A stretch of 20,310 nt of DNA from contig JBAXOY010000051.1 of the NCBI GenBank assembly GCA_037133055.1, positions 1 to 20,310 on the forward strand, given 5' to 3'. The notes under the pieces are model-generated. The model was not told where the DNA came from, did not search any database, and saw only the letters and a list, made by a program, of their open reading frames with translations. The stretch comes from Chlamydiota bacterium (lineage in GTDB: Bacteria; Auribacterota; Tritonobacteria; UBA1439). Below are positions 2,993-13,280 of this stretch, one piece after another. A program made the position numbers and the translations under genes. Positions within the stretch are counted from its first letter, which is position 1. Every line of letters begins with the position of its first letter.

Positions 2993-3458
2993 TAAAAGGT
3001 CAAAGTACGACTGGCAGGCTATACGGCACGAGTATGTCACAAGCCCTGCAGGGGAAGAAGGGTTGACGTTAGATGTGTTGTCGAAAAAATACCGTTGCCC
3101 ATTCACCTATATCCAGCAAAAGGCGGCTAAGGAAAGTTGGACAAAGCTCCGCGAGGGTCATAGAAGAAAAATAGCAGAAAATGCGCAGAAAAAAGCCGAG
3201 GAAACTGCCGCCCAACGCCTACATCGCCATGCGCAGTACCTGAGGCTCGTACAGGCGAAGGCCGGGAAGGCGATGCTTACCGGAGAAACGGTCCCGACGC
3301 CGAGAGACGGAACCGAGGCAATTAAGGCCGAGCGCGTACTGTACGGCGAGGCCAGTGAGCATATACAGATTGAAGCAAGTAAACTCGACAGAATGATAGC
3401 CGCCGCGTACTGGAAGGCGCGCCGGGAACAGATGGAGTATGAGAGCGATGGAGATTGA
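2967..3458 (+). CDS. Terminase small subunit (putative)
   Basis: N-terminal YDWQAIRHEYVT / LSKKY / KESW HTH-like pattern followed by helical segments; overlaps the large terminase start. Confidence 0.7.
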   Translation: MRNKSTRNNKRSKYDWQAIRHEYVTSPAGEEGLTLDVLSKKYRCPFTYIQQKAAKESWTKLREGHRRKIAENAQKKAEETAAQRLHRHAQYLRLVQAKAGKAMLTGETVPTPRDGTEAIKAERVLYGEASEHIQIEASKLDRMIAAAYWKARREQMEYESDGD

Positions 3459-5091
3459 GGAGCTTCGCAAGAAGGACCGCTATTTCAGAGGGATCACTCC
3501 GGGCAGTCCCGTTGAGCTCCTCGACTACGTCGCGACATACTGCGGCGCGATCATCCCGCATTATCCGAAGGGAAAGGCACCCTGTGTCGGACATGATTCT
3601 CCGTCTTCGTACCTTGTCGGCAGCTTCTTCGACAATACGGACGGCTGGAGCAAATCGGAAAAAGCCCAGTACGAGCCGCACAAGGATTGTGTCGTGTGGG
3701 CCTGCCGGAGCGGCGGGAAGACGATGCTGGGCGCGATCTCGGCAAGGCTCAAGGCTCATTTTATGTCACCGTGCGAGATACGTGTACTCGGGGGGTCCAG
3801 CGATCAGGCCAAGAAAATGTACGACAACGTGAGCAGATTCGACCTCACGGCCTTCGCGGACATGGTAGTCGGCGAGGCGACGCAGGAGAAGACGAGATAC
3901 CGGGGTATGAGCAATATCGAGATTCTCATGGCGTCGATGAAGAGCGTTCGCGGGCCGCATGTGCCGGTCCTTATGCTCGACGAGGTGGACGAGTTCACGA
4001 AGCGCATCTATATCGCTGCCGTCGCCATCGCCCAGTCCTCGAAAAAGGTGACGGCGACAATCGAACAGTTCTCAACGGCGCACAATCCGAACGGAATCAT
4101 GCAACAGCTCATTACGGATGCGGCGACGAGCGGCATGAGGCTCTATAAGTGGTGCATATTCGAGTGCCTCATTAAATGCCCCTACCCATGCACGCCGGGC
4201 AATCCCCACAAGAAGTGTGCCGAGATGGTGAAGTACGACCAGATGAATCAGCCGCACCGGTTCTCGGATGTCTGCGGATGCAAAGCGAAGAAGGGCCGCG
4301 GGTACTACCGGATCGAGGACCTGTGGCAGAAGTTTGAGCACCCGATGATGAGCTGGGAGAGTTTCGCGTCGGAATACCTCTGTGACCTCCCGAAGCTGGA
4401 GGATGCCGCCTTCCCGATGCTGGCCAAGTTGCACCTTGTCCCCGACTGGCCTTGTGTTCCAGCCCCCGCAGGTTGGCTTAGGTCGCAATTTCGGCTGGTA
4501 CTAGGGGCTGATGCCGGGCCGGTCAACACATGGGTCGTGTGGGCGCTCGTGGGGCGGCTGGACCCGAAGCATGACGATTTCGACACGTTCCAGGTGATCC
4601 ACCAGCTTGTAACTGACAGGGCGACAGCCTCATCCGACCGGGCCGACATGATAGTCGCCGAGAATGAGCGGATGGGGTTCCCGAAGGCGACAGGGCTATT
4701 CACGGGACCATCGAGCGTGCCGCAGGACTCTGAGCTCGCAATGGAGCTCGACAAGGAACACAGGCGGTCTCGGCTGTTCCTGCCGTCGCCTCAGTCGCCT
4801 GCAGGCCGACGCTGTATGAGATGTGACAAGGAAGGGATGCAGTACGGCTGGGAGTCGATGGGCGGGCTTCTCGTGCTGCGGACGGTCATCGACGAACAGC
4901 CGCGCCCGGCGCTCGTGTTCGGAGCGGCCGCCCGTCCGACTTATGACGTGCTCGCAACGCAGCAGAAGGGGGAAGACGAAGCCCACGGAGTCGCAGCTAC
5001 GCGATACCTGATACGCGGATGGGAGACGTACAAGAACAGACTCACCGCAGCCTATGACGGGGGCGGTGGGATGGTGATTGCGACATCGTAA
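3439..5091 (+). CDS. terL: Terminase large subunit
   Basis: Walker A ACRSGGKT, SVRG, Walker B LMLDEVDE, coupling motif FSTA, RNase H-like start VLGADAG; lies between the TerS candidate and the portal. Alternative start ATG at 3448. Confidence 0.88.
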   Translation: MRAMEIEELRKKDRYFRGITPGSPVELLDYVATYCGAIIPHYPKGKAPCVGHDSPSSYLVGSFFDNTDGWSKSEKAQYEPHKDCVVWACRSGGKTMLGAISARLKAHFMSPCEIRVLGGSSDQAKKMYDNVSRFDLTAFADMVVGEATQEKTRYRGMSNIEILMASMKSVRGPHVPVLMLDEVDEFTKRIYIAAVAIAQSSKKVTATIEQFSTAHNPNGIMQQLITDAATSGMRLYKWCIFECLIKCPYPCTPGNPHKKCAEMVKYDQMNQPHRFSDVCGCKAKKGRGYYRIEDLWQKFEHPMMSWESFASEYLCDLPKLEDAAFPMLAKLHLVPDWPCVPAPAGWLRSQFRLVLGADAGPVNTWVVWALVGRLDPKHDDFDTFQVIHQLVTDRATASSDRADMIVAENERMGFPKATGLFTGPSSVPQDSELAMELDKEHRRSRLFLPSPQSPAGRRCMRCDKEGMQYGWESMGGLLVLRTVIDEQPRPALVFGAAARPTYDVLATQQKGEDEAHGVAATRYLIRGWETYKNRLTAAYDGGGGMVIATS

Positions 5092-5117: not shown

Positions 5118-6812
5118 ATGTCAAAAATTAAAAATACGTCACAACCGGTGCATACCGGGACAGTCATGAAAGCTGCTTCGCAGATGGTCGCGCTCGCGTC
5201 AGGCGGTCCGGTAATGGAGCAGGCTATTCCGAGTCGGTCAGCGTTCAAGGATCCGTTCGCGAAGAAGTCGATCGACGGGTTGCTGGTACATCCGGTCCCC
5301 CCGGTGGAGCTCTGCTTCTGGAAACAGCGGTCGAGTATCCTTCCGCAGATCATCCGCGCCCTCGAGGTGGGGATCGAGAGCTACGGGTACGACTTCATCA
5401 TCGCCGAGGAGATGAACGACGAGAAGGAGAAGGCCGCTATATGGGCGGCGATCAAAGGGGAGATCAACCCCCTGACCGGCCTCGCCTACGCCAAGACCAT
5501 CGAGGAGCTTCTCAACAGGGAGATCGAGCTCTGCGAACGGTTCTATGACTACTTCTCTCCGTTTGAGTCCTTCATCGACATCCGCCGGAAGTTCAGGAAC
5601 GATCGGGAGACCGTCGGCGCATGGGCGATGGAGGTCCTACGCGACGGGTTCGGCATCCCCTGCGGCGGCGAGCATGTCCCTGCGCATGAGGTCGGGCTCC
5701 TCGAGAAGGACGATACCGCTACGGAGATTGAGTTCGCGCGTATCGGTCGTGACTGGAAATGGGTGACGGATACGCGGCCGGTCTTTTTCCGCCGGTATGT
5801 CCAGATCAAGGGTGGATCAAAACGATATTACCGGCAGTTCGGGGATCCCCGCCCCCTGAGTTACATCAACGGGAAGACCCTCCTGAGTGCCGATGCGAAG
5901 AGTGCCGCCACGGAGATCATCTATGCCCCCGTGTATGTTCCCGGCACGGACTACGGCCTCCCGGACTGGTCCTCGCAGATCTACAACATCGGCGGCAGTC
6001 ACCTCATGGAGAAGGGGAACATGAGCTACTTCGCCAACTCCATGATCCCCGCGATCTTCATGGCGATCCTCGGCGGAGGAAAGGTCACGCAGGAGGAGCT
6101 CAAGAAGCTCGCGGGAGAGTTCGAGAAGGTGAAGGGCGACCCGAGCCAGACGAAACTCCTCGCGGTGCAGTTGCCGGCTGGCATGGCGGAGAACGATCCG
6201 ACGGGCAAGGCGAACAAACCTGACCTCGTGCTCAAGTTCCTGAAGGACCAGCAGCGGAATGACGCGACGCACACGGTCTACGGGAAGATCAATGACGAGA
6301 AGCTTCTGAGCTCGAGGGCTGTCCCGCCCATAGCCATAGGACGCAGTGGCGACTATACCCGCGCCACAGTATTCGGAGCCCTCAGCATGTTCGAGGACCG
6401 GACGTGCCGACCGGAGCGGAATCAATTCGACTGGACCATGAATCGAATCATCGTCGAGATGCGCGTGCGGTTCCATGAGTTCCAGTCAAGGGGACCGGAC
6501 CTGAGCGATCCTGACAGCATCGCCAGGCTGGTCGATGCCTGCTCGCGCGCCGGCGGGCTCTCGATCAACGGTTGCATCCAGATCGCCAACAAGGCCCTCG
6601 GGACAAAGGTGCCGCCGTATCCCGGGCCTGACGGTGACCTGCCGATCGCCGTGGTACTCGAGAAGATCAGGGCGCAGGCGGCGCTACAGGGGCCACGCGT
6701 GGCGCTCACGGCGGAGGATTCCGAGAAGCACATGAAGCAGTTCACGCAGATGTTCGGCAACTGGCTCATGCACTGCCGGGATCACGCGAGGAGGCTGAGC
6801 GATGCGGCGTAA
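5118..6812 (+). CDS. Portal protein (PBSX XkdE-like)
   Basis: 564 aa following TerL; motifs DRETVGAWAMEVLRD, YGLPDW, NMSYFANSMIP and VPPIAIG typical of phage portals. Confidence 0.85.
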   Translation: MSKIKNTSQPVHTGTVMKAASQMVALASGGPVMEQAIPSRSAFKDPFAKKSIDGLLVHPVPPVELCFWKQRSSILPQIIRALEVGIESYGYDFIIAEEMNDEKEKAAIWAAIKGEINPLTGLAYAKTIEELLNREIELCERFYDYFSPFESFIDIRRKFRNDRETVGAWAMEVLRDGFGIPCGGEHVPAHEVGLLEKDDTATEIEFARIGRDWKWVTDTRPVFFRRYVQIKGGSKRYYRQFGDPRPLSYINGKTLLSADAKSAATEIIYAPVYVPGTDYGLPDWSSQIYNIGGSHLMEKGNMSYFANSMIPAIFMAILGGGKVTQEELKKLAGEFEKVKGDPSQTKLLAVQLPAGMAENDPTGKANKPDLVLKFLKDQQRNDATHTVYGKINDEKLLSSRAVPPIAIGRSGDYTRATVFGALSMFEDRTCRPERNQFDWTMNRIIVEMRVRFHEFQSRGPDLSDPDSIARLVDACSRAGGLSINGCIQIANKALGTKVPPYPGPDGDLPIAVVLEKIRAQAALQGPRVALTAEDSEKHMKQFTQMFGNWLMHCRDHARRLSDAA

Positions 6813-6867: not shown

Positions 6868-7139
6868 CTAAACGTGAGCAGTTGCAGAAGTACATCATGG
6901 GGGAAGCAGCTACCGTCGCCGACAGGATTATCGAGCGGTCATCCGGAAAGTACGCGCTTCCGCCTGGGTGGAAGTATGGGCGCATCGGGAAGAAGGTCGT
7001 CATCAAGTGCGGGCCCGGGAACAATGCCGCAGACGAGCCGTTCGCGGTCCCCGTGGATCTCTTTATTGAGATGGATCTCGATGCCATAGAGCGATGGATC
7101 GAGGATTGCCGGAAGGCGCTCAAATCGGAGAATGAGTAA
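6864..7139 (+). CDS. Hypothetical protein (91 aa)
   Basis: Fills the gap between portal and gpF-like gene; TAATG overlap with the next gene. Confidence 0.6.
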   Translation: MTKREQLQKYIMGEAATVADRIIERSSGKYALPPGWKYGRIGKKVVIKCGPGNNAADEPFAVPVDLFIEMDLDAIERWIEDCRKALKSENE

Positions 7140-8170
7140 TGTGCCATCTCTGCGAGCAGATAGACCGGATGGACGCCGCTGACAGGTTGAGGATCGAGCA
7201 GTCTATCGACTGGCTCTTCGGCGACGATGGCATTGTCGAGCGCGCGAAGAAGAAGGAGAAGAACCCGCTTATCAATCGTGACCTTGTGGCATTTGAAGTC
7301 ACTCTCTCCGACAGCCTGCGGAAGATCGCCGATGCCGAGGGGGACGCCGCGAAGACGTGGCTCATGAAGTTCCTCGACGAGTCCTTCACGGTCACAGACG
7401 CATCCGCAAAGGAACTCGTAGAGATGGTCAGTACCTTCTACCCGCATATCGGCTCCGCAATCGCCGAGTCTGCCGTCCCCGTGACGGAGGAGACCGCGCA
7501 GGAGATCATCAGGCTCGCGCGGAAGCATATCGCCGTGAAACCCGCCTTCTCGAAACTCCCCGAGGACTGGGCAATGACGTGGAATCTCCGGGATGATCGT
7601 GCACTCGAGGCGCTTGCCCGGAAGCCTGCCATGTGGATCGGCGACTACTACTCCGGCCCGAAGATCGACCAGGTGCGAGCGATCGTCGATTCGGCAATGG
7701 CGAAAGGGCTCGGTCGGGATCAGACGGCGGCGCTTCTGAAAGAGGCCCTCGGGGTGACATTCGATGATTACCGGTATTGGGATGTGCTTTCGTCATCAGT
7801 GACAACGAAGGCTCGGAGCTGGAGCATCCTCACGGGGATGCAGGATGCCGGGTATGAGGTTTACATCTGGCACGCCGCTGGGGATGAGCGCAGCTGCGAG
7901 AGTTGCCTAGCTATGGACGGTCGTGAGTTCTCGGTCGCGAAGGCAATCAGGAACATTGAGGCTACCTTTGATCTTGAGGACAAGGACCAGGCGAAGGACA
8001 AACTCCCGTGGCTCTCGTGGGATCCCGAGCGGAAGGACATGTACTACAAGAAGGGCGACCGTTCAGTATACGTTGGCAACAGGGGGAGCGAGAGCCTTCA
8101 GAACAGCGGGATCGGAACGCCCCCTCTCCACGGACGCTGCAGGTGCACCCTCGTTCTCGCGGAGCAATAG
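7139..8170 (+). CDS. Head morphogenesis / minor head protein (SPP1 gp7, Mu gpF family)
   Basis: WHAAGDERSCESCLAMDG and the C-terminal PPLHGRCRCTLV signature; located after the portal. Confidence 0.88.
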   Translation: MCHLCEQIDRMDAADRLRIEQSIDWLFGDDGIVERAKKKEKNPLINRDLVAFEVTLSDSLRKIADAEGDAAKTWLMKFLDESFTVTDASAKELVEMVSTFYPHIGSAIAESAVPVTEETAQEIIRLARKHIAVKPAFSKLPEDWAMTWNLRDDRALEALARKPAMWIGDYYSGPKIDQVRAIVDSAMAKGLGRDQTAALLKEALGVTFDDYRYWDVLSSSVTTKARSWSILTGMQDAGYEVYIWHAAGDERSCESCLAMDGREFSVAKAIRNIEATFDLEDKDQAKDKLPWLSWDPERKDMYYKKGDRSVYVGNRGSESLQNSGIGTPPLHGRCRCTLVLAEQ

Positions 8171-8788: not shown

Positions 8789-8829
8789 CCTAATCCAACT
8801 GACATCGTTTGAGCTTGGCCTGGACTGAA

Positions 8830-9003
8830 ATGACTGAAATGACGATAGGCGACGTGCGGTGCTGGCATTGCCACAAGATTCTGATATTTGATGCGGCCAT
8901 GGTTCGCGGGAGAATCAAATGTCCAAGATGCGGTAAGCCAACGAAGATCCCGAAACCGACGAGTGAAAACAAGATAAGTGAGAAGGTGAACGCCTCGGCG
9001 TAA
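8830..9003 (+). CDS. Com-family (Mu Com-like) zinc-finger protein
   Basis: DVRCWHCHKILIF...RIKCPRCGK matches the Com pattern IRCxxCxKLL...IxCPRCK. Start uncertain (TTG 8809, ATG 8830 or ATG 8839). Confidence 0.75.
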   Translation: MTEMTIGDVRCWHCHKILIFDAAMVRGRIKCPRCGKPTKIPKPTSENKISEKVNASA

Positions 9004-9015
9004 GAAGTATTATTC

Positions 9016-9044
9016 TTGACAGCATTATGTTGTTATGCTATAAT
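9016..9044 (+). promoter_or_regulatory. Perfect-consensus sigma70/sigmaA promoter with extended -10
   Basis: TTGACA 9016-9021, 17-nt spacer, TG at 9036-9037, TATAAT 9039-9044, in an AT-rich patch of a GC-rich sequence. Confidence 0.92.
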
Positions 9045-9093
9045 TTTTGCTGACACTTGGAAAATTGTGTCTCGATCTTTTTCATAGTGGGGA

Positions 9094-9172
9094 AGAGAGC
9101 CATAGTGCACCAGCGCCATTGGACAGTGAGCCGGCGCGAACCCCATGTGCTGAGAGAGCCATAGAGCACCAG
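9094..9172 (+). repeat. 20-nt direct repeat AGAGAGCCATAG(T/A)GCACCAG, candidate Com-binding boxes
   Basis: Copies at 9094-9113 and 9153-9172 (19/20 identical); degenerate GTGAGCC-GGC-GCGAACC between them at 9126-9142. Confidence 0.85.
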
Positions 9173-9230
9173 ATCCGAAGATGCTTGTGCGTCTGACCGT
9201 TTGACCCGCCAGGTTGCGGTCTAGGATCAT

Positions 9231-9285
9231 AGGCACATCGTTTCAGGCGTGAATAACGCTTGATTCGATGTGCCTTTTTTATTTT
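9231..9285 (+). terminator. Intrinsic terminator T1
   Basis: AGGCACATCG (9231-9240) / CGATGTGCCT (9266-9275) perfect 10-bp stem, inner stem TCAGGCGT/ACGCTTGA, followed by TTTTTATTTT. Confidence 0.85.
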
Positions 9286-9302
9286 CTCCGGCACGCGAAG
9301 TC

Positions 9303-9347
9303 AAGGCCCGTTGTTTCAGGTTCACGCCTGAGCAATGGGCCTTTTTT
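9303..9347 (+). terminator. Intrinsic terminator T2
   Basis: AAGGCCCGTTGTTTCAGG (9303-9320) / CCTGAGCAATGGGCCTT (9327-9343) with G-U pairs and one bulge; T6 at 9342-9347. Confidence 0.8.
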
Positions 9348-9368
9348 CTGCGCGGAGCCGGAGGAGAC

Positions 9369-9773
9369 ATGAGGAAGCCAGGGCACTACAGGATCGCGGC
9401 GGTTCTATTCGCCTCTCTCGTTTTCGCAAGCCTCGCGTCTGCTCAGACCGAGACGCCTACCCCCACCGAAACACCGACCTCAACTCCGACTATCACGCCG
9501 ACCCTGACGCCTACTCCGTCTCCGACGGCCTATGCCTATCCATACGCGCCGTCCTACGACTGGAAGTACGGGGGCGCCGCGCAGACGCAGAAGGCGATCC
9601 GTCAAATCGCGCATGACCTCGCGGGGATCGCCGCGTCATCCGGCTACCAGCTCCCAGTGCTCTATGTCCAGTCCACCCCAACCCCGACTCCTACCCGGAC
9701 CCGGACCCCGACGAAGACTCCGACGGTCACCCGCACCCCCACGAGGACACCGACCCCCACGGTGACTCCATGA
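9369..9773 (+). CDS. Signal-peptide Pro/Thr-repeat protein 1 (134 aa)
   Basis: SD GGAGGAG then ATG at 9369 (preferred over 9270). MRKPGHYRIAAVLFASLVFASLASA|QTETPT has basic, hydrophobic and A-S-A cleavage regions; two PT tracts flank a short core; ATGA overlap with the protease. Confidence 0.8.
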   Translation: MRKPGHYRIAAVLFASLVFASLASAQTETPTPTETPTSTPTITPTLTPTPSPTAYAYPYAPSYDWKYGGAAQTQKAIRQIAHDLAGIAASSGYQLPVLYVQSTPTPTPTRTRTPTKTPTVTRTPTRTPTPTVTP

Positions 9774-11167
9774 AGGCCCGACGATTCCTGGACGTTGACG
9801 TCGAGTGGATCAGTCTCGTGTTCGATCCGCGAGAGCCCGCGAACCGGGAGCCGCTGAAAGTCGCAAGGACGACCGGCCAGGCGGTCGAGCAGGGTCTTGA
9901 GCTCGTATCGGTCGCCCGGGATGCGGACTTCGACGAGAGCAAGGCTACTTTCGACCGGATCGTCCCTGTCGAGCGGATCGACAAGGATGCGCGGACGCTC
10001 TACGGGATCGTTTACCGGGTCAACGACGTGGACGCCTGCGGGACCTACGCGACCGCCGAGACAGTCCACCTGATGATGCGTAAGTTCGCCGCCCGCGGGC
10101 TCCTCGGCAACGTCGACAGCAACCACGACGAGAAGAAGCTGCGCGGTGTGTTCATCTCCCAACAGTGGATCGTGAAGCGCGGGGATCCGCTGTTCCCTGA
10201 ACCGAAGTACGAGGGTGCGTGGGCTGCCGGGGCATACGTGCAGGAGAACGATGCCGGCGCGAAGGTCTGGGAACGGGTGGAGAAAGGCGAGGCCCGCGGC
10301 TTCAGCCTGAAGGGCATGGCGCTGGTCAGCGATGAGCACGAGGTCGGCTTCGAACCCGTGGCGAATACGAAGAAGGAGAACGAGAAGATGGACAAGAAGG
10401 ATCAGCGAACGGATGACGGCGCCCAGCCGAGTGTCGAGGAGATAAGCCGGGCCCGCAAGGTACTCCGCTGGCTATTCGGCGAGTCGGCGCAGCGCGGCGT
10501 GTTAGGCGGACAAGAACCCCACGCGGGCGAGGCTCCGGCAGATGCGGTGCTCGGTGCCGCCGCCAGGGGGATCGAGGTGGAGCTTGCGGGCCGGGAGTTC
10601 TCGAAGTGCAATCTCGATCAGATGAAGGCCGCCCACGACATGCTCGGGAAGCTGATCGCGAAGGCGGGGGGCGGCGAGAGTGAAGGCGGGGACGCAACGA
10701 AACGGACAACCAAACAGGAGGGGAAGGACATGGAGAAGAGCGAGGTGGTTCAGCTGATCGCGGAGGCGATGAAGCCAATCGAGGCGAAACTGACGGAGAT
10801 CGGGTCGAAGCTTGCCGAGAAGGCGCCGGAGGTGAAGCTCAGTGAGGCGGACGTGGCTCGCATCGCCGCGGTCGAGACGAAGCTCACGGCGATCGAGGCG
10901 AAGCAGGCGGAAGCCCCGAAGACGGCTGAGCAGCAGCAGGCTGAGCTCACCGCGAAGATCGCGGAGGGAGAGGCGAAGACCGTGGAGCTCACCAAGCAGC
11001 TCAGGGAGCAGAGCGATAAGATCGTCGAGCAGAGGACCATGCTCGACAAGCTCTCCGGGAAGCGTCCGGAGTCGCGGTCTGCGCAGCCGGGTGGCGCCGG
11101 GCCGTCCGACGCGCCGAAACTGCAACTCAAGGTGAGGGACGGCGCTCCCAAGGGGTGCGTCATCTAG
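9770..11167 (+). CDS. XkdF-like prohead serine protease with C-terminal coiled-coil scaffold region
   Basis: WISLVFDPREPAN, RTLYGIVY, VDSNHD, GAW and WERVEKGEARGFSLKG motifs; long E/K/A-rich helical C-terminus; directly precedes the capsid gene. Confidence 0.85.
   Translation: MKARRFLDVDVEWISLVFDPREPANREPLKVARTTGQAVEQGLELVSVARDADFDESKATFDRIVPVERIDKDARTLYGIVYRVNDVDACGTYATAETVHLMMRKFAARGLLGNVDSNHDEKKLRGVFISQQWIVKRGDPLFPEPKYEGAWAAGAYVQENDAGAKVWERVEKGEARGFSLKGMALVSDEHEVGFEPVANTKKENEKMDKKDQRTDDGAQPSVEEISRARKVLRWLFGESAQRGVLGGQEPHAGEAPADAVLGAAARGIEVELAGREFSKCNLDQMKAAHDMLGKLIAKAGGGESEGGDATKRTTKQEGKDMEKSEVVQLIAEAMKPIEAKLTEIGSKLAEKAPEVKLSEADVARIAAVETKLTAIEAKQAEAPKTAEQQQAELTAKIAEGEAKTVELTKQLREQSDKIVEQRTMLDKLSGKRPESRSAQPGGAGPSDAPKLQLKVRDGAPKGCVI
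10730..11167 (+). CDS. Putative nested scaffolding protein from an internal in-frame start
   Basis: AGGAGG at 10716-10721 upstream of in-frame ATG 10730 (MEKSEVVQ...), 145 aa, coiled-coil composition. Confidence 0.55.
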   Translation: MEKSEVVQLIAEAMKPIEAKLTEIGSKLAEKAPEVKLSEADVARIAAVETKLTAIEAKQAEAPKTAEQQQAELTAKIAEGEAKTVELTKQLREQSDKIVEQRTMLDKLSGKRPESRSAQPGGAGPSDAPKLQLKVRDGAPKGCVI

Positions 11168-11230: not shown

Positions 11231-12157
11231 ATGAAGAGATACGCGACATTCGAAGAAGTGGCGAGGGCGATCAAGCAGGGTGACGTCGGCGGGAACGTGA
11301 TGGCTGCCGAGGAGGCGACTGAATTCGTCCTGACAACCCTGAACGAGCAGAAGCTGATGCCGTCCATTCAGAACAATATCATGACGAGGGAGACGAAGAA
11401 GATCAGTACTCTCGGCATGACGGGTCGTGCGACGCGCGGACCTGGCGCCGGTACGGTGAACGAGGAGGAGGCTGCGGTTACCTACGGCGAGAACACTCTT
11501 ACCGGTAAAAAGACGATGCTCAATTTCCGGATAGAGTACGAAGCTACCATGTTCAACATCGAGGGGTCCAGCATTACCGACACGCTGAAAGGCCTCGCGG
11601 CGACTACGATCGGCAACAGCAATGAGGACCTTGGGATCAACGGTGCTGTGGCGACCGATCCGGGAGCAGATGACTACGCCTTCCTGAAGCAGAATGACGG
11701 TTGGCTCGCGCTCGCCGAAGAGGAAGACCGCGGAACCCACAAGGTCAACTCGAACGACCTAACGAAGATGTCGGAGAAGTTCGAGCAGGCCATGATGGCG
11801 TTGCCGGCGAAATGGCGGAGCGCGCCGACGAAGGCATTCATCTGCAGCGATACCGATGCCAGGTCATGGGCGCTCGAGGTGAGCGGGATGGTGGGTGCAT
11901 ACAACTATCTGCTGAACGGCGTGATCCCTCCATACGCAGGAATACCGATCGTCGATCTGCCGGCGTGGCCCACAGGGACGATCTTCCACGGGCCGACGAG
12001 GAACCTGAACTTCGGCGTGGTCCGGGACAGCATCCGCAACGAGACGGACGTGGACATCGAATCGCAGGAGTTCATCTTCGTGTGGAGCATGTTCATCGAC
12101 TACGAGTTCGGCCTCAACGATGCAGTCGTGGTCAGCAAGGACCGCGGACCCGCATAA
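11231..12157 (+). CDS. Major capsid protein (HK97 fold, XkdG/P2-like)
   Basis: 308 aa after the protease; SD GGAGG; GGNVMAAEEATEF, NIEG, EDLGING, NDGWL and ALPAKWR motifs; followed by a strong terminator. Confidence 0.85.
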   Translation: MKRYATFEEVARAIKQGDVGGNVMAAEEATEFVLTTLNEQKLMPSIQNNIMTRETKKISTLGMTGRATRGPGAGTVNEEEAAVTYGENTLTGKKTMLNFRIEYEATMFNIEGSSITDTLKGLAATTIGNSNEDLGINGAVATDPGADDYAFLKQNDGWLALAEEEDRGTHKVNSNDLTKMSEKFEQAMMALPAKWRSAPTKAFICSDTDARSWALEVSGMVGAYNYLLNGVIPPYAGIPIVDLPAWPTGTIFHGPTRNLNFGVVRDSIRNETDVDIESQEFIFVWSMFIDYEFGLNDAVVVSKDRGPA

Positions 12158-12188: not shown

Positions 12189-12227
12189 GGCCCGGCAGGA
12201 TGACACCTGTTCCTGCCGGGCCTTTTT
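12189..12227 (+). terminator. Intrinsic terminator after the capsid gene
   Basis: GGCCCGGCAGGA (12189-12200) / TCCTGCCGGGCC (12211-12222) perfect 12-bp stem followed by TTTTT. Confidence 0.85.
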
Positions 12228-12243
12228 CATGGAGGATCAGTAG

Positions 12244-12690
12244 GTGCCGATCTATAGAGACAGGCGATGCTCGGGGTCATATTCCCAGACGGTCAACGGC
12301 ATCGCTTACTGCCTGAGATCACACAAACCTGCTCCTCCTGGTACGCCGCCCGGAGTAATCGAGAAGGCCAGGAGATGCGGGGTGATCGTTCTCGATCCGG
12401 GGCAGAAACCCGAGCCGATGAGGAAGGTGGCTCCCGAGGAGCTCAAGGACAATAAGTCGCACATGGTCATAGCGAGTACCAGGCCGAAGAGGCTGCGCGA
12501 TGAGTTCCCGGCGAGGTCGAGAGTGAAGAAACAAGAGGAAGAGGCGCAGCCGCCAGCATCCGCTCCGGCGGTACCGGCGGATGTGGATGTTTCTAATCCG
12601 GGATGGAATAGGCCGAAGACCGAAGAAAAGCCACAGGCTACAGAGAAGAAGATCGCAAAACGAGCACGCAAGAAAGAAGGAGAAAAATGA
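12244..12690 (+). CDS. Hypothetical protein with Pro/Lys-rich, probably disordered C-terminus
   Basis: SD GGAGG (12231-12235) with GTG start; ATGA overlap with the next gene; post-capsid position. Confidence 0.7.
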   Translation: MPIYRDRRCSGSYSQTVNGIAYCLRSHKPAPPGTPPGVIEKARRCGVIVLDPGQKPEPMRKVAPEELKDNKSHMVIASTRPKRLRDEFPARSRVKKQEEEAQPPASAPAVPADVDVSNPGWNRPKTEEKPQATEKKIAKRARKKEGEK

Positions 12691-13280
12691 GAGAGAGAAG
12701 ATTCAAATGGAGGGTGCTCGGCGCGATGGTACTCTTCGCCATTGTGGTGACGTCTGTGCTCGCCCAGACGGAGACGCCAACTGAGACCCCGACGATCACA
12801 GCGACCCCCACGAATACTCCGACCAATACCCCCACAAACACGCCGACGGGGACCCCGACCAGTACGGCTACATACACTCCGACGATCACGCCAACAGCAA
12901 CGGCCACGGCGACTACTCCCCCGACGGCGACATCGACGCCGACTAAGACGCCGACGATTACCCCGACGCCCACTGTGACACCGGTGCAGTTCCGGGTCCC
13001 GCTTGAGCCTTTTCGCGGGATGCGAGGCGGGGCAGACATCTTCAACGGATTCAAACAGACGGCGTATGACCTGAACGCGATCAAGACATGGCTTGAGGCG
13101 AATGTGGCGACGCCCGGGCCGGCAATTGGGCTATCGGTACAGCCGACGGTGACCCCCACACCGACGCCGACGAAGACGCCTACGCGGACGGCGACTCCGA
13201 CCCGGACACCGACACGGACTCCGACGCCCACGAGGACAGCGACGCCGACAAGGACCCCCACGGCCACGGTTACGCCGTAG
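12687..13280 (+). CDS. Signal-peptide Pro/Thr-repeat protein 2 (197 aa); paralog of 9369..9773
   Basis: MRERRFKWRVLGAMVLFAIVVTSVLA|QTETPT; two PT tracts; core GGA...KQTAYDLNAI; ends TVTP; SD AAGGAG. Confidence 0.85.
   Translation: MRERRFKWRVLGAMVLFAIVVTSVLAQTETPTETPTITATPTNTPTNTPTNTPTGTPTSTATYTPTITPTATATATTPPTATSTPTKTPTITPTPTVTPVQFRVPLEPFRGMRGGADIFNGFKQTAYDLNAIKTWLEANVATPGPAIGLSVQPTVTPTPTPTKTPTRTATPTRTPTRTPTPTRTATPTRTPTATVTP

Follow-up and report, generated by a model that had tools for sequence, protein, structure and literature searches.

The stretch of DNA analysed in this study, here called the window, comprises 20,310 nt and is contig C51 of its genome (G000). Profile matches identify it as the structural region of a contractile-tailed phage, in which the genes of interest are arranged as follows.

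3439-5091, terminase
5118-6812, portal
7139-8170, Mu-F-like gene
8830..9003, plus strand, Com-like C4 zinc-ribbon gene, the last gene of the packaging (terminase-portal-F) run
9369..9773, plus strand, first gene behind the leader and the first proposed to be gated by it; hydrophobic N-terminus and Thr-Pro repeats (by eye), core conserved in relatives
9770-11167, plus strand, prohead protease (Pfam/PHROG)
11231-12157, plus strand, major capsid protein, followed by neck, sheath and tube genes

The block at 9770..12157 matches PF14550 and PHROG families 3017, 1623, 442, 222, 23 and 4542. The gene at 12687-13280 encodes, like that at 9369-9773, a product with a hydrophobic N-terminus and Thr-Pro repeats, as do many host contigs; no Pfam family was found for the 9369..9773 gene or for the conserved cores of the two products. 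Upstream of the terminase, positions 21-2992 hold two ParB-like genes, one of them fused to a phosphoribosyltransferase-like domain, together with a B12/radical-SAM-like gene, the whole being a possible DNA-modification module. Contig C144 overlaps the window start by 20 nt, and the start of C144 in turn lies in C187. Contigs C15 and C148, which are linked to the window by homology only, are similar to the early region found in a relative; a divergent HTH pair and an integrase-family match on them suggest that the window phage is temperate.

The gene that closes the packaging run encodes 57 aa with a CxxC-16-CxxC arrangement and displays the family traits of four N-terminal zinc-binding cysteines, small size and a variable tail. 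A first-pass annotation of this DNA had called it Com-like, and the profile search bears this out, with a score of 31.7 bits against PF10122 (Zn_ribbon_Com; cut-off 22.9) and further matches to PHROG 6417 ('translational regulator') and PHROG 13819 ('gpCom'). Structure modelling gives a beta-ribbon of low confidence (pLDDT 59.5), and a fold search returned nothing at E <= 0.001. One protein homologue search recovered the query itself only and another gave 46 matches, two of which are full-length orthologues; across the phylum, matches to the zinc-finger profile sit in open frames of 115-510 aa. A 9-nt tandem repeat at 8823-8840 gives the gene two in-frame ATGs, and its SD is weak.

Twelve nucleotides separate the stop codon of this gene from the -35 element of a perfect sigma70 promoter, as first described, and only six such TTGACA-17-TATAAT sites exist in the 2.99-Mb genome. 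The leader that follows, put at about 320 nt by the same annotation, measures 318 nt from a start inferred near 9051 to the ATG at 9369. It contains no SD-led start, for which reason a leader peptide was dropped from consideration. The features of promoter and leader, including those of the predicted folds discussed below, are listed here.

9016..9044, plus strand, sigma70-type promoter TTGACA-17-TATAAT with extended TG, 12/12 match
9052..9071, plus strand, 5' hairpin P1, conserved in 5/7 leaders
9089..9144, plus strand, G4:C4 helix (9089-9092 with 9141-9144), from conserved runs and folds
9094..9113, plus strand, box 1, one mismatch from the Com consensus (GTG for the second GAG)
9145..9151, plus strand, switch (antiterminator) strand S, a mimic of the T1 3' arm that pairs with 9232-9238
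9153..9172, plus strand, box 2, exact Com SELEX bipartite consensus (from 9154), loop CC-ATA-GAG
9172..9228, plus strand, three-way junction domain between box 2 and T1, -24.1 kcal/mol
9231..9285, plus strand, terminator T1, 45-nt hairpin 9231-9275 (-31.6 kcal/mol) plus U tract
9286..9363, plus strand, SD-blocking helix, 9286-9292 with 9357-9363; SD GGAGG 9360-9364, ATG 9369
9290..9305, plus strand, strand e, which pairs with the T1 3' arm 9259-9274 in the read-through fold
9303..9347, plus strand, terminator T2, hairpin 9303-9343, -27.8 kcal/mol; in 5/7 leaders

An Rfam search of the leader gave no match (best E 0.34, all far below gathering scores), and likeness to T-box, hammerhead, TRAP or HutP elements was dropped, there being no T-box sequence, no catalytic core and too few triplet repeats. 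Three RNA runs returned a single 35-nt piece of low identity, lying outside the leader. The promoter spacer (9022-9038) is a near-palindrome, and a 10-nt word in it recurs at two host sites, C38:15687 and C87:12725 of G000, one of them the promoter of a Soj/ParA-like gene (by eye); the word is possibly a host operator or a promoter habit of the lineage. In the related genome G061 both late promoters share a spacer motif, which resembles the host promoter on C38. A shared spacer operator was not adopted because the motif is missing from the window phage's own packaging promoter.

Seven homologous leaders were compared, namely those of the window and of loci L119, L044, L089, L050, L003 and L151, after removal of L045, which is near-identical to the window, and of repeats of one record. 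As L119, L044 and L089 are near-identical and form one lineage, the sample represents about five independent lineages. DNA-pattern searches yielded homologues at 4/11, 3/82, 4/16 and 1/2 loci, and at 0/1 and 0/8 loci when run on genomes. L003 came from a capsid search, and a protein homologue search for the capsid gave two matches. The sample is biased, since the T1 5' arm lay within the search patterns for all leaders but L003 and strand S within the pattern through which L151 was recovered; no pattern included strand e. No homologous leader was found in 60 related genomes, which gave two short weak matches only, or in scans of genome contigs, and no second copy in the phage's own genome or in two related phage records. 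A promoter-like site precedes, and head genes follow, the leader in 7/7 cases, and six measured leaders span about 300-410 nt. Losses are seen for T2 (in L050 and L151) and for most of the first gene (in L089). A zinc-finger orthologue occupies the same position in 5/6 homologous loci, with C11, C14, C31 and C34 invariant across the six aligned proteins; those of L050 (19.2 bits) and L151 (17.8 bits) score under the PF10122 cut-off, and those of L119, L089 and L003 gave no match to it. The exception, L044, has a transposase-like ORF (by eye) and a methylase-like gene where the zinc finger would be, and a host-like gene (NadA-like, by eye) is found about 0.7 kb away from L050; both loci are likely prophage remnants or rearrangements.

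The first-pass annotation had noted repeated GAG-NN-CC boxes in the leader. There is indeed a 20-nt direct repeat (9094-9113 and 9153-9172, 19/20 identical), of a kind seen in 0/2000 leader shuffles, and its second copy alone has the strict bipartite form, the first reading GTG. Box 2 is the sole strict GAG-NN-CC-N3-GAG-NN-CC in the window, against an expectation of 0.008 per 318 nt and 7/2000 shuffles; the one-mismatch motif is unenriched window-wide (5 found, 3.35 expected). The consensus derives from a SELEX study of Com, the available text of which also gives CC(N)2-3GAG as the minimal bound loop, a motif contained in box 2, and implicates the GA in binding, an A that box 1 lacks (PMC6483171). 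The hairpin of box 2 is marginal (-0.5 kcal/mol). The boxes lie 196-255 nt from the ATG, in keeping with the early estimate of about 200 nt; their placement just upstream of the terminators needs refining to 58-117 nt before T1, with no overlap. Box 1 and a variable hairpin are enclosed by the G4:C4 helix, an extension of which can capture strand S. Among the six homologous leaders none has the strict box (L050 has an N4 variant), and no GAG-NN-CC half site was found in the box region of L119, L044, L089 or L003. What the leaders keep is two small hairpins at the box positions, spaced 54-83 nt apart, with box 2 57-72 nt from T1. The two loops are alike within a phage, being CAUAG-type in the window and L003 and CAGUAGA twice in L151; they form a near pair in L050 and are less alike in the L119 lineage.

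Two intrinsic terminators ahead of the first SD had also been proposed, and our fold predictions agree: T1 and T2 are strong U-tailed hairpins, two of the three strongest among the five on the plus strand of the window. Interior loops caused a simple terminator scanner to overlook T1 and to report no more of T2 than a sub-hairpin. The T1 hairpin with at least five U is found in 7/7 leaders. T2 sits within the longer helix that covers the SD. The junction domain between box 2 and T1 contains two helices with compensatory changes and is replaced by two hairpins in L003 and L151. Its conserved CGCCA apical loop (9207-9211) could form a kissing contact with the UUGG/UGG loop (9057-9060) of the 5' hairpin; in L003 and L151 these words pair inside a single hairpin. 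Shuffling of the whole leader gives z = -7.4, a value dominated by the terminators.

Beyond the terminators, the leaders share a second set of pairings that is incompatible with the first. Strand S can form seven pairs with the T1 5' arm in 7/7 leaders (11 bp in L050), closing a domain made of the box-2 hairpin and the three-way junction. The S helix has one single-sided change and no doubly changed pair, and 257 of the 20299 11-mers of the window pair equally well with the T1 5' arm, so that taken alone it is weak evidence. Its predicted probability before the T1 3' arm is made is 0.98 in L050 and L151, 0.38 in L119 and L044, 0.02 in the window (+0.9 kcal/mol) and about 0 in L089 (+4.5) and L003 (+6.4), and in folding of growing transcripts it collapses once 4-6 nt of the T1 3' arm emerge. 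Strand e, which in the off fold contributes its 5' end to the SD-blocking helix, pairs with the T1 3' arm in 77/77 alignment cells, compared with 25-44% in slid controls, and four pairs and seven cells are doubly changed (10/500 and 0/500 shuffles, respectively). Finally, the loop and 3' arm of T2 (9321-9331) are the exact complement of the T1 upper arm and loop (9243-9253), giving 11 perfect pairs in 5/5 T2-bearing leaders at a place where T1's own upper stem keeps a G-U; the duplex is worth -18.3 kcal/mol, versus -10.5 and -6.4 for the two local stems.

These three helices nest without a pseudoknot. The whole read-through fold is 91% paired with 12 doubly changed pairs (0/500 shuffles), and the off fold is 94% paired with none, a lack to which its near-invariance contributes. 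Since the structures were derived from these very sequences and kin share changes, the shuffle counts are not probabilities. The comparison shows that two mutually exclusive sets of predicted pairings are conserved in related phages. The predicted leader thereby combines a terminator with a mutually exclusive upstream antiterminator pairing, the general mark of an attenuator. Judged from sequence and folding, it is a real, conserved and previously uncatalogued two-state RNA linked to a Com-family gene. Predicted energies prefer the off fold, by 8-16 kcal/mol at the U tract and by 10-26 kcal/mol for the full-length leader, as would be expected of an attenuator whose outcome is set kinetically, and the choice between folds must therefore be co-transcriptional. 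In the five leaders with T2, imposing the S helix and the T1-T2 duplex at once carries a penalty of about 31-39 kcal/mol, which makes invasion of T2 by the T1 upper arm the least certain step. The SD becomes more accessible in the on fold in only 3/6 leaders, and the stretch scored in L151 probably missed its SD.

One could regard the alternative pairings as by-products of hairpin-arm duplication, with no regulatory role, T1 and T2 merely damping expression. The two terminators do share arm sequence, from which 8 of the 11 T1-T2 cross pairs would follow, and the off fold always wins at equilibrium. Nevertheless, strand e follows the T1 3' arm and not the 5' arm: the L119 lineage changes the 3' arm and e together with the 5' arm unchanged, and the e of L151 complements the 3' arm exactly over 8 nt, a better match than T1's own 5' arm offers. 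In a cross-matrix of e and T1 the cognate partner is the best or within 0.4 kcal/mol of it in every row, but not in every column. We consider the duplication account very improbable.

We propose instead, with roughly even confidence, that the leader is an attenuator operated by the Com protein, in which the read-through fold is clamped during transcription, linking antitermination to release of the ribosome site. The strong host-type promoter would fire constitutively. When protein is absent, T1 would form and release an RNA of about 230 nt, and leaky transcripts would meet T2 and the SD-blocking helix. The zinc-finger protein would be made from the end of the packaging operon and so should appear later in infection. 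It would bind the box-hairpin loops on both sides of the G4:C4/S junction and clamp S (9145-9151) on the T1 5' arm against displacement by the T1 3' arm. The freed 3' arm could then be captured by strand e (9290-9305), locking T1 open and breaking the SD-blocking helix, and the T1 upper arm would invade T2, so that a single binding decision might let polymerase past both terminators and ribosomes onto the first gene. The first-pass annotation had suggested an RNA-binding antiterminator. The conserved strand beside box 2 and the covarying read-through fold favour this idea, and the absence of the strict box from all six relatives tells against it. Its contrast with the Mu paradigm was overstated, because the same fold would also free the SD, which is Mu-like.

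A GAG loop is kept in the leaders of the window, L050 and L151, the three loci whose proteins score against PF10122, and L119, L089 and L003 have neither score nor loop, making two concordant contrasts that are weak. L119 and L089 differ upstream at 11/3466 nt (99.7% identical over 3.4 kb) and at 2/142 nt from T1 to the ATG, yet at 32/87 nt in the zinc-finger core and 14/43 around box 1, with the box-2 hairpin unchanged. The difference could be one recombined cassette, and it fits a co-inherited specificity pair. On the other hand, the leader might be a protein-independent or host-controlled switch, riboswitch-like or put/EAR-like, with the zinc finger a linked neighbour devoted to another task. 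Consistent with this, conservation is stronger in the scaffold, a large multi-junction fold, than in the boxes, L050 and L151 are predicted to form the S helix even with no protein, and the leader of L044 is intact although the 2.5 kb fetched hold no zinc-finger gene. Such a switch would leave unexplained the exact Com consensus beside a Com-family gene and the joint change of the paired loops with one another and with the protein core, and the lack of an Rfam match also speaks against it. We regard it as unlikely.

Binding was simulated by hard folding constraints on the box hairpins, with results that are inconsistent across leaders. Forcing the box-2 hairpin alone in the window raised the probability of the S helix from 0.02 to 0.53, and forcing both boxes lowered it to 0.008 there; in the other six leaders forcing the box hairpins brought no gain (probability near 0 in L089 and L003). 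Given this inconsistency, the mode of binding, whether bridging or tertiary clamping, and its sign are inferred. A protein that binds and represses, favouring T1 or an anti-antiterminator, or a short terminated RNA that acts as a decoy setting a protein threshold, would agree with the lower values obtained on holding box 1 or both (0.008 in the window, 0.08 in L119 and L044) and with the abundant two-box RNA that a strong promoter followed by T1 would yield. However, the Com protein studied so far is an activator, the gene's place at the end of the preceding operon suits a feed-forward step, and a pure decoy needs no covarying read-through helices; a threshold effect would be compatible with the Com-operated attenuator. 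Repression or titration as the main role is thus a slim possibility.

Other late terminators of this phage family bear on the question. The packaging operon of G000 (C187, minus strand; L176, promoter at about 2052) and that of G061 (L174:2550-2700) each begin with a sigma70 promoter and a leader of about 50 nt, in which a small hairpin is common to both; a long U-tailed terminator and an SD are also present, and there is no Com box. A further U-tailed hairpin without a Com box lies 3' of the capsid gene, as listed here.

12189..12227, plus strand, further U-tailed hairpin 3' of the capsid gene, -28.2 kcal/mol

By the same scan no equivalent was found in L003, L089 or L175. L175, from the phage of L151, has a T1-like long terminator between terminase and portal (about 10630-10690, minus strand), and in the window that gap is 26 nt and lacks it. 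These box-less terminators may be leaky or in need of a processive factor, so a second read-through mechanism may exist. A separate processive antiterminator (Q/N/put-like), loaded at a late promoter or leader, could carry polymerase past all late terminators, leaving Com mainly a Mu-style release of the SD through the same refolding. Besides three box-less terminators (that of C187, that 3' of the capsid gene and that ahead of the portal in L151's phage), this explanation draws on the spacer motif shared by the two late promoters of G061, on the persistence of strand e and the SD-side pairing where T2 is lost (L050, L151) and on the translational role of Mu Com. Against it, refolding a finished transcript would cost the 10-26 kcal/mol given above, the packaging promoter of the window phage lacks the shared spacer, a scan of 15 + 13 early and late proteins (a partial set) revealed no Q-like family, and holding the S helix necessarily removes the T1 lower stem. 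We judge it fairly improbable.

The Com-operated attenuator resembles several known systems without coinciding with any. Mu Com is described, in the accessible parts of the reports, as a translational activator of mom (PMC6483171, PMC3299994). The likeness to Mu Com/mom (PF10122) lies in the C4 zinc-finger family, the hairpin with a CC-N3-GAG loop and an SD-hiding helix predicted to open by refolding. Unlike in Mu, the boxes here lie at a distance of 196-255 nt from the start codon and precede intrinsic terminators, and if the proposal is right they work by way of a long-range fold; the genes gated would be head and tail genes (Thr-Pro protein, protease, capsid) rather than a DNA-modification gene, and com lies upstream of the promoter, outside the regulated transcript. 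ANTAR systems (EutV, AmiR, NasR), according to the part of the source available, use a pair of hexaloop hairpins separated by 5-12 nt, of which the second overlaps the terminator (PMC3369931). Shared with them are two small hairpins of similar loops before an intrinsic terminator and a proposed exclusion of that terminator by protein binding, whereas the protein fold here is unrelated, the hairpins are 54-83 nt apart, the second has no terminator overlap, and the leader adds a junction domain, a second terminator and an SD lock. No ANTAR domain (PF03861) was matched in G000, and the control genomes gave none either. In BglG/LicT RAT, T-box and riboswitch attenuators a metastable antiterminator helix is held against a more stable terminator; that logic is common to our leader, which differs in having no Rfam match and a phage zinc ribbon as its proposed ligand. 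In lambda (pR'-tR'/Q), Q loads from DNA, and the put RNA of HK022 acts alone and processively. These also have a strong host-polymerase promoter and a terminator before late genes, but the evidence here points to a local RNA switch. The leader would behave like an ANTAR/BglG-type attenuator joined to Mu-type SD release, yet it belongs to neither group.

Com has been documented only as a translational activator; in the accessible text of two papers, Com homologues precede methylase, bacteriocin, lysis and levansucrase genes and their wider role 'remains to be explored' (PMC3299994, PMC6240691). No paper on Com-family antitermination was found in the literature searched, mostly outside subscription journals, and the words 'zinc' and 'phage' are absent from the available part of a 2025 review of antiterminators (PMC12591593). 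If our proposal is true, a Com-operated attenuator would be a new route for timing late genes beside Q, N, put and DNA-binding activators, with an antiterminator of 57 residues, and naturally diverged protein-RNA pairs could serve as orthogonal switches for synthetic biology. More speculatively, and with clearly less confidence than in the attenuator itself, we suggest that Com-family zinc ribbons may constitute an unrecognised class of late-gene antiterminators, in which one binding event is relayed to two terminators and a ribosome site through an allosteric RNA of riboswitch size, and in which protein core and box are swapped as a specificity cassette between otherwise identical phages.

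A search for Com genes with promoter-box-terminator leaders had been recommended from the outset. Scanning viral contigs for a promoter plus box gave 38 loci, 16 of them distinct, and in 5/16, from unrelated phages, the second half-box itself is the 5' arm of a U-tailed hairpin, a pattern that speaks for the proposed attenuator. A small Com-like ORF occurs in four of these five records (three over the cut-off; three of the records are only 5-6.5 kb), compared with 2/5 records without such a terminator (five of the 11 others tested). Three more Com genes were compared, and in two of them the 3' end carries a bipartite box that overlaps a second terminator. The simple box-terminator overlaps of other phages (L007, L018, L022, L031, L034, L190 and L192) share with the window a Com-type box, an intrinsic terminator and a Com-like gene in the record, and differ in that the half-box is the terminator arm there, whereas the window has a separate switch strand and a scaffold of about 300 nt. 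In L190, L192 and L193 (and L031, L034 and L022), from unrelated phages, each genome has a pair of Com-box terminators, the first following a promoter and the second lying at the 3' end of com; com is downstream of the first, an arrangement in which positive feedback is possible.
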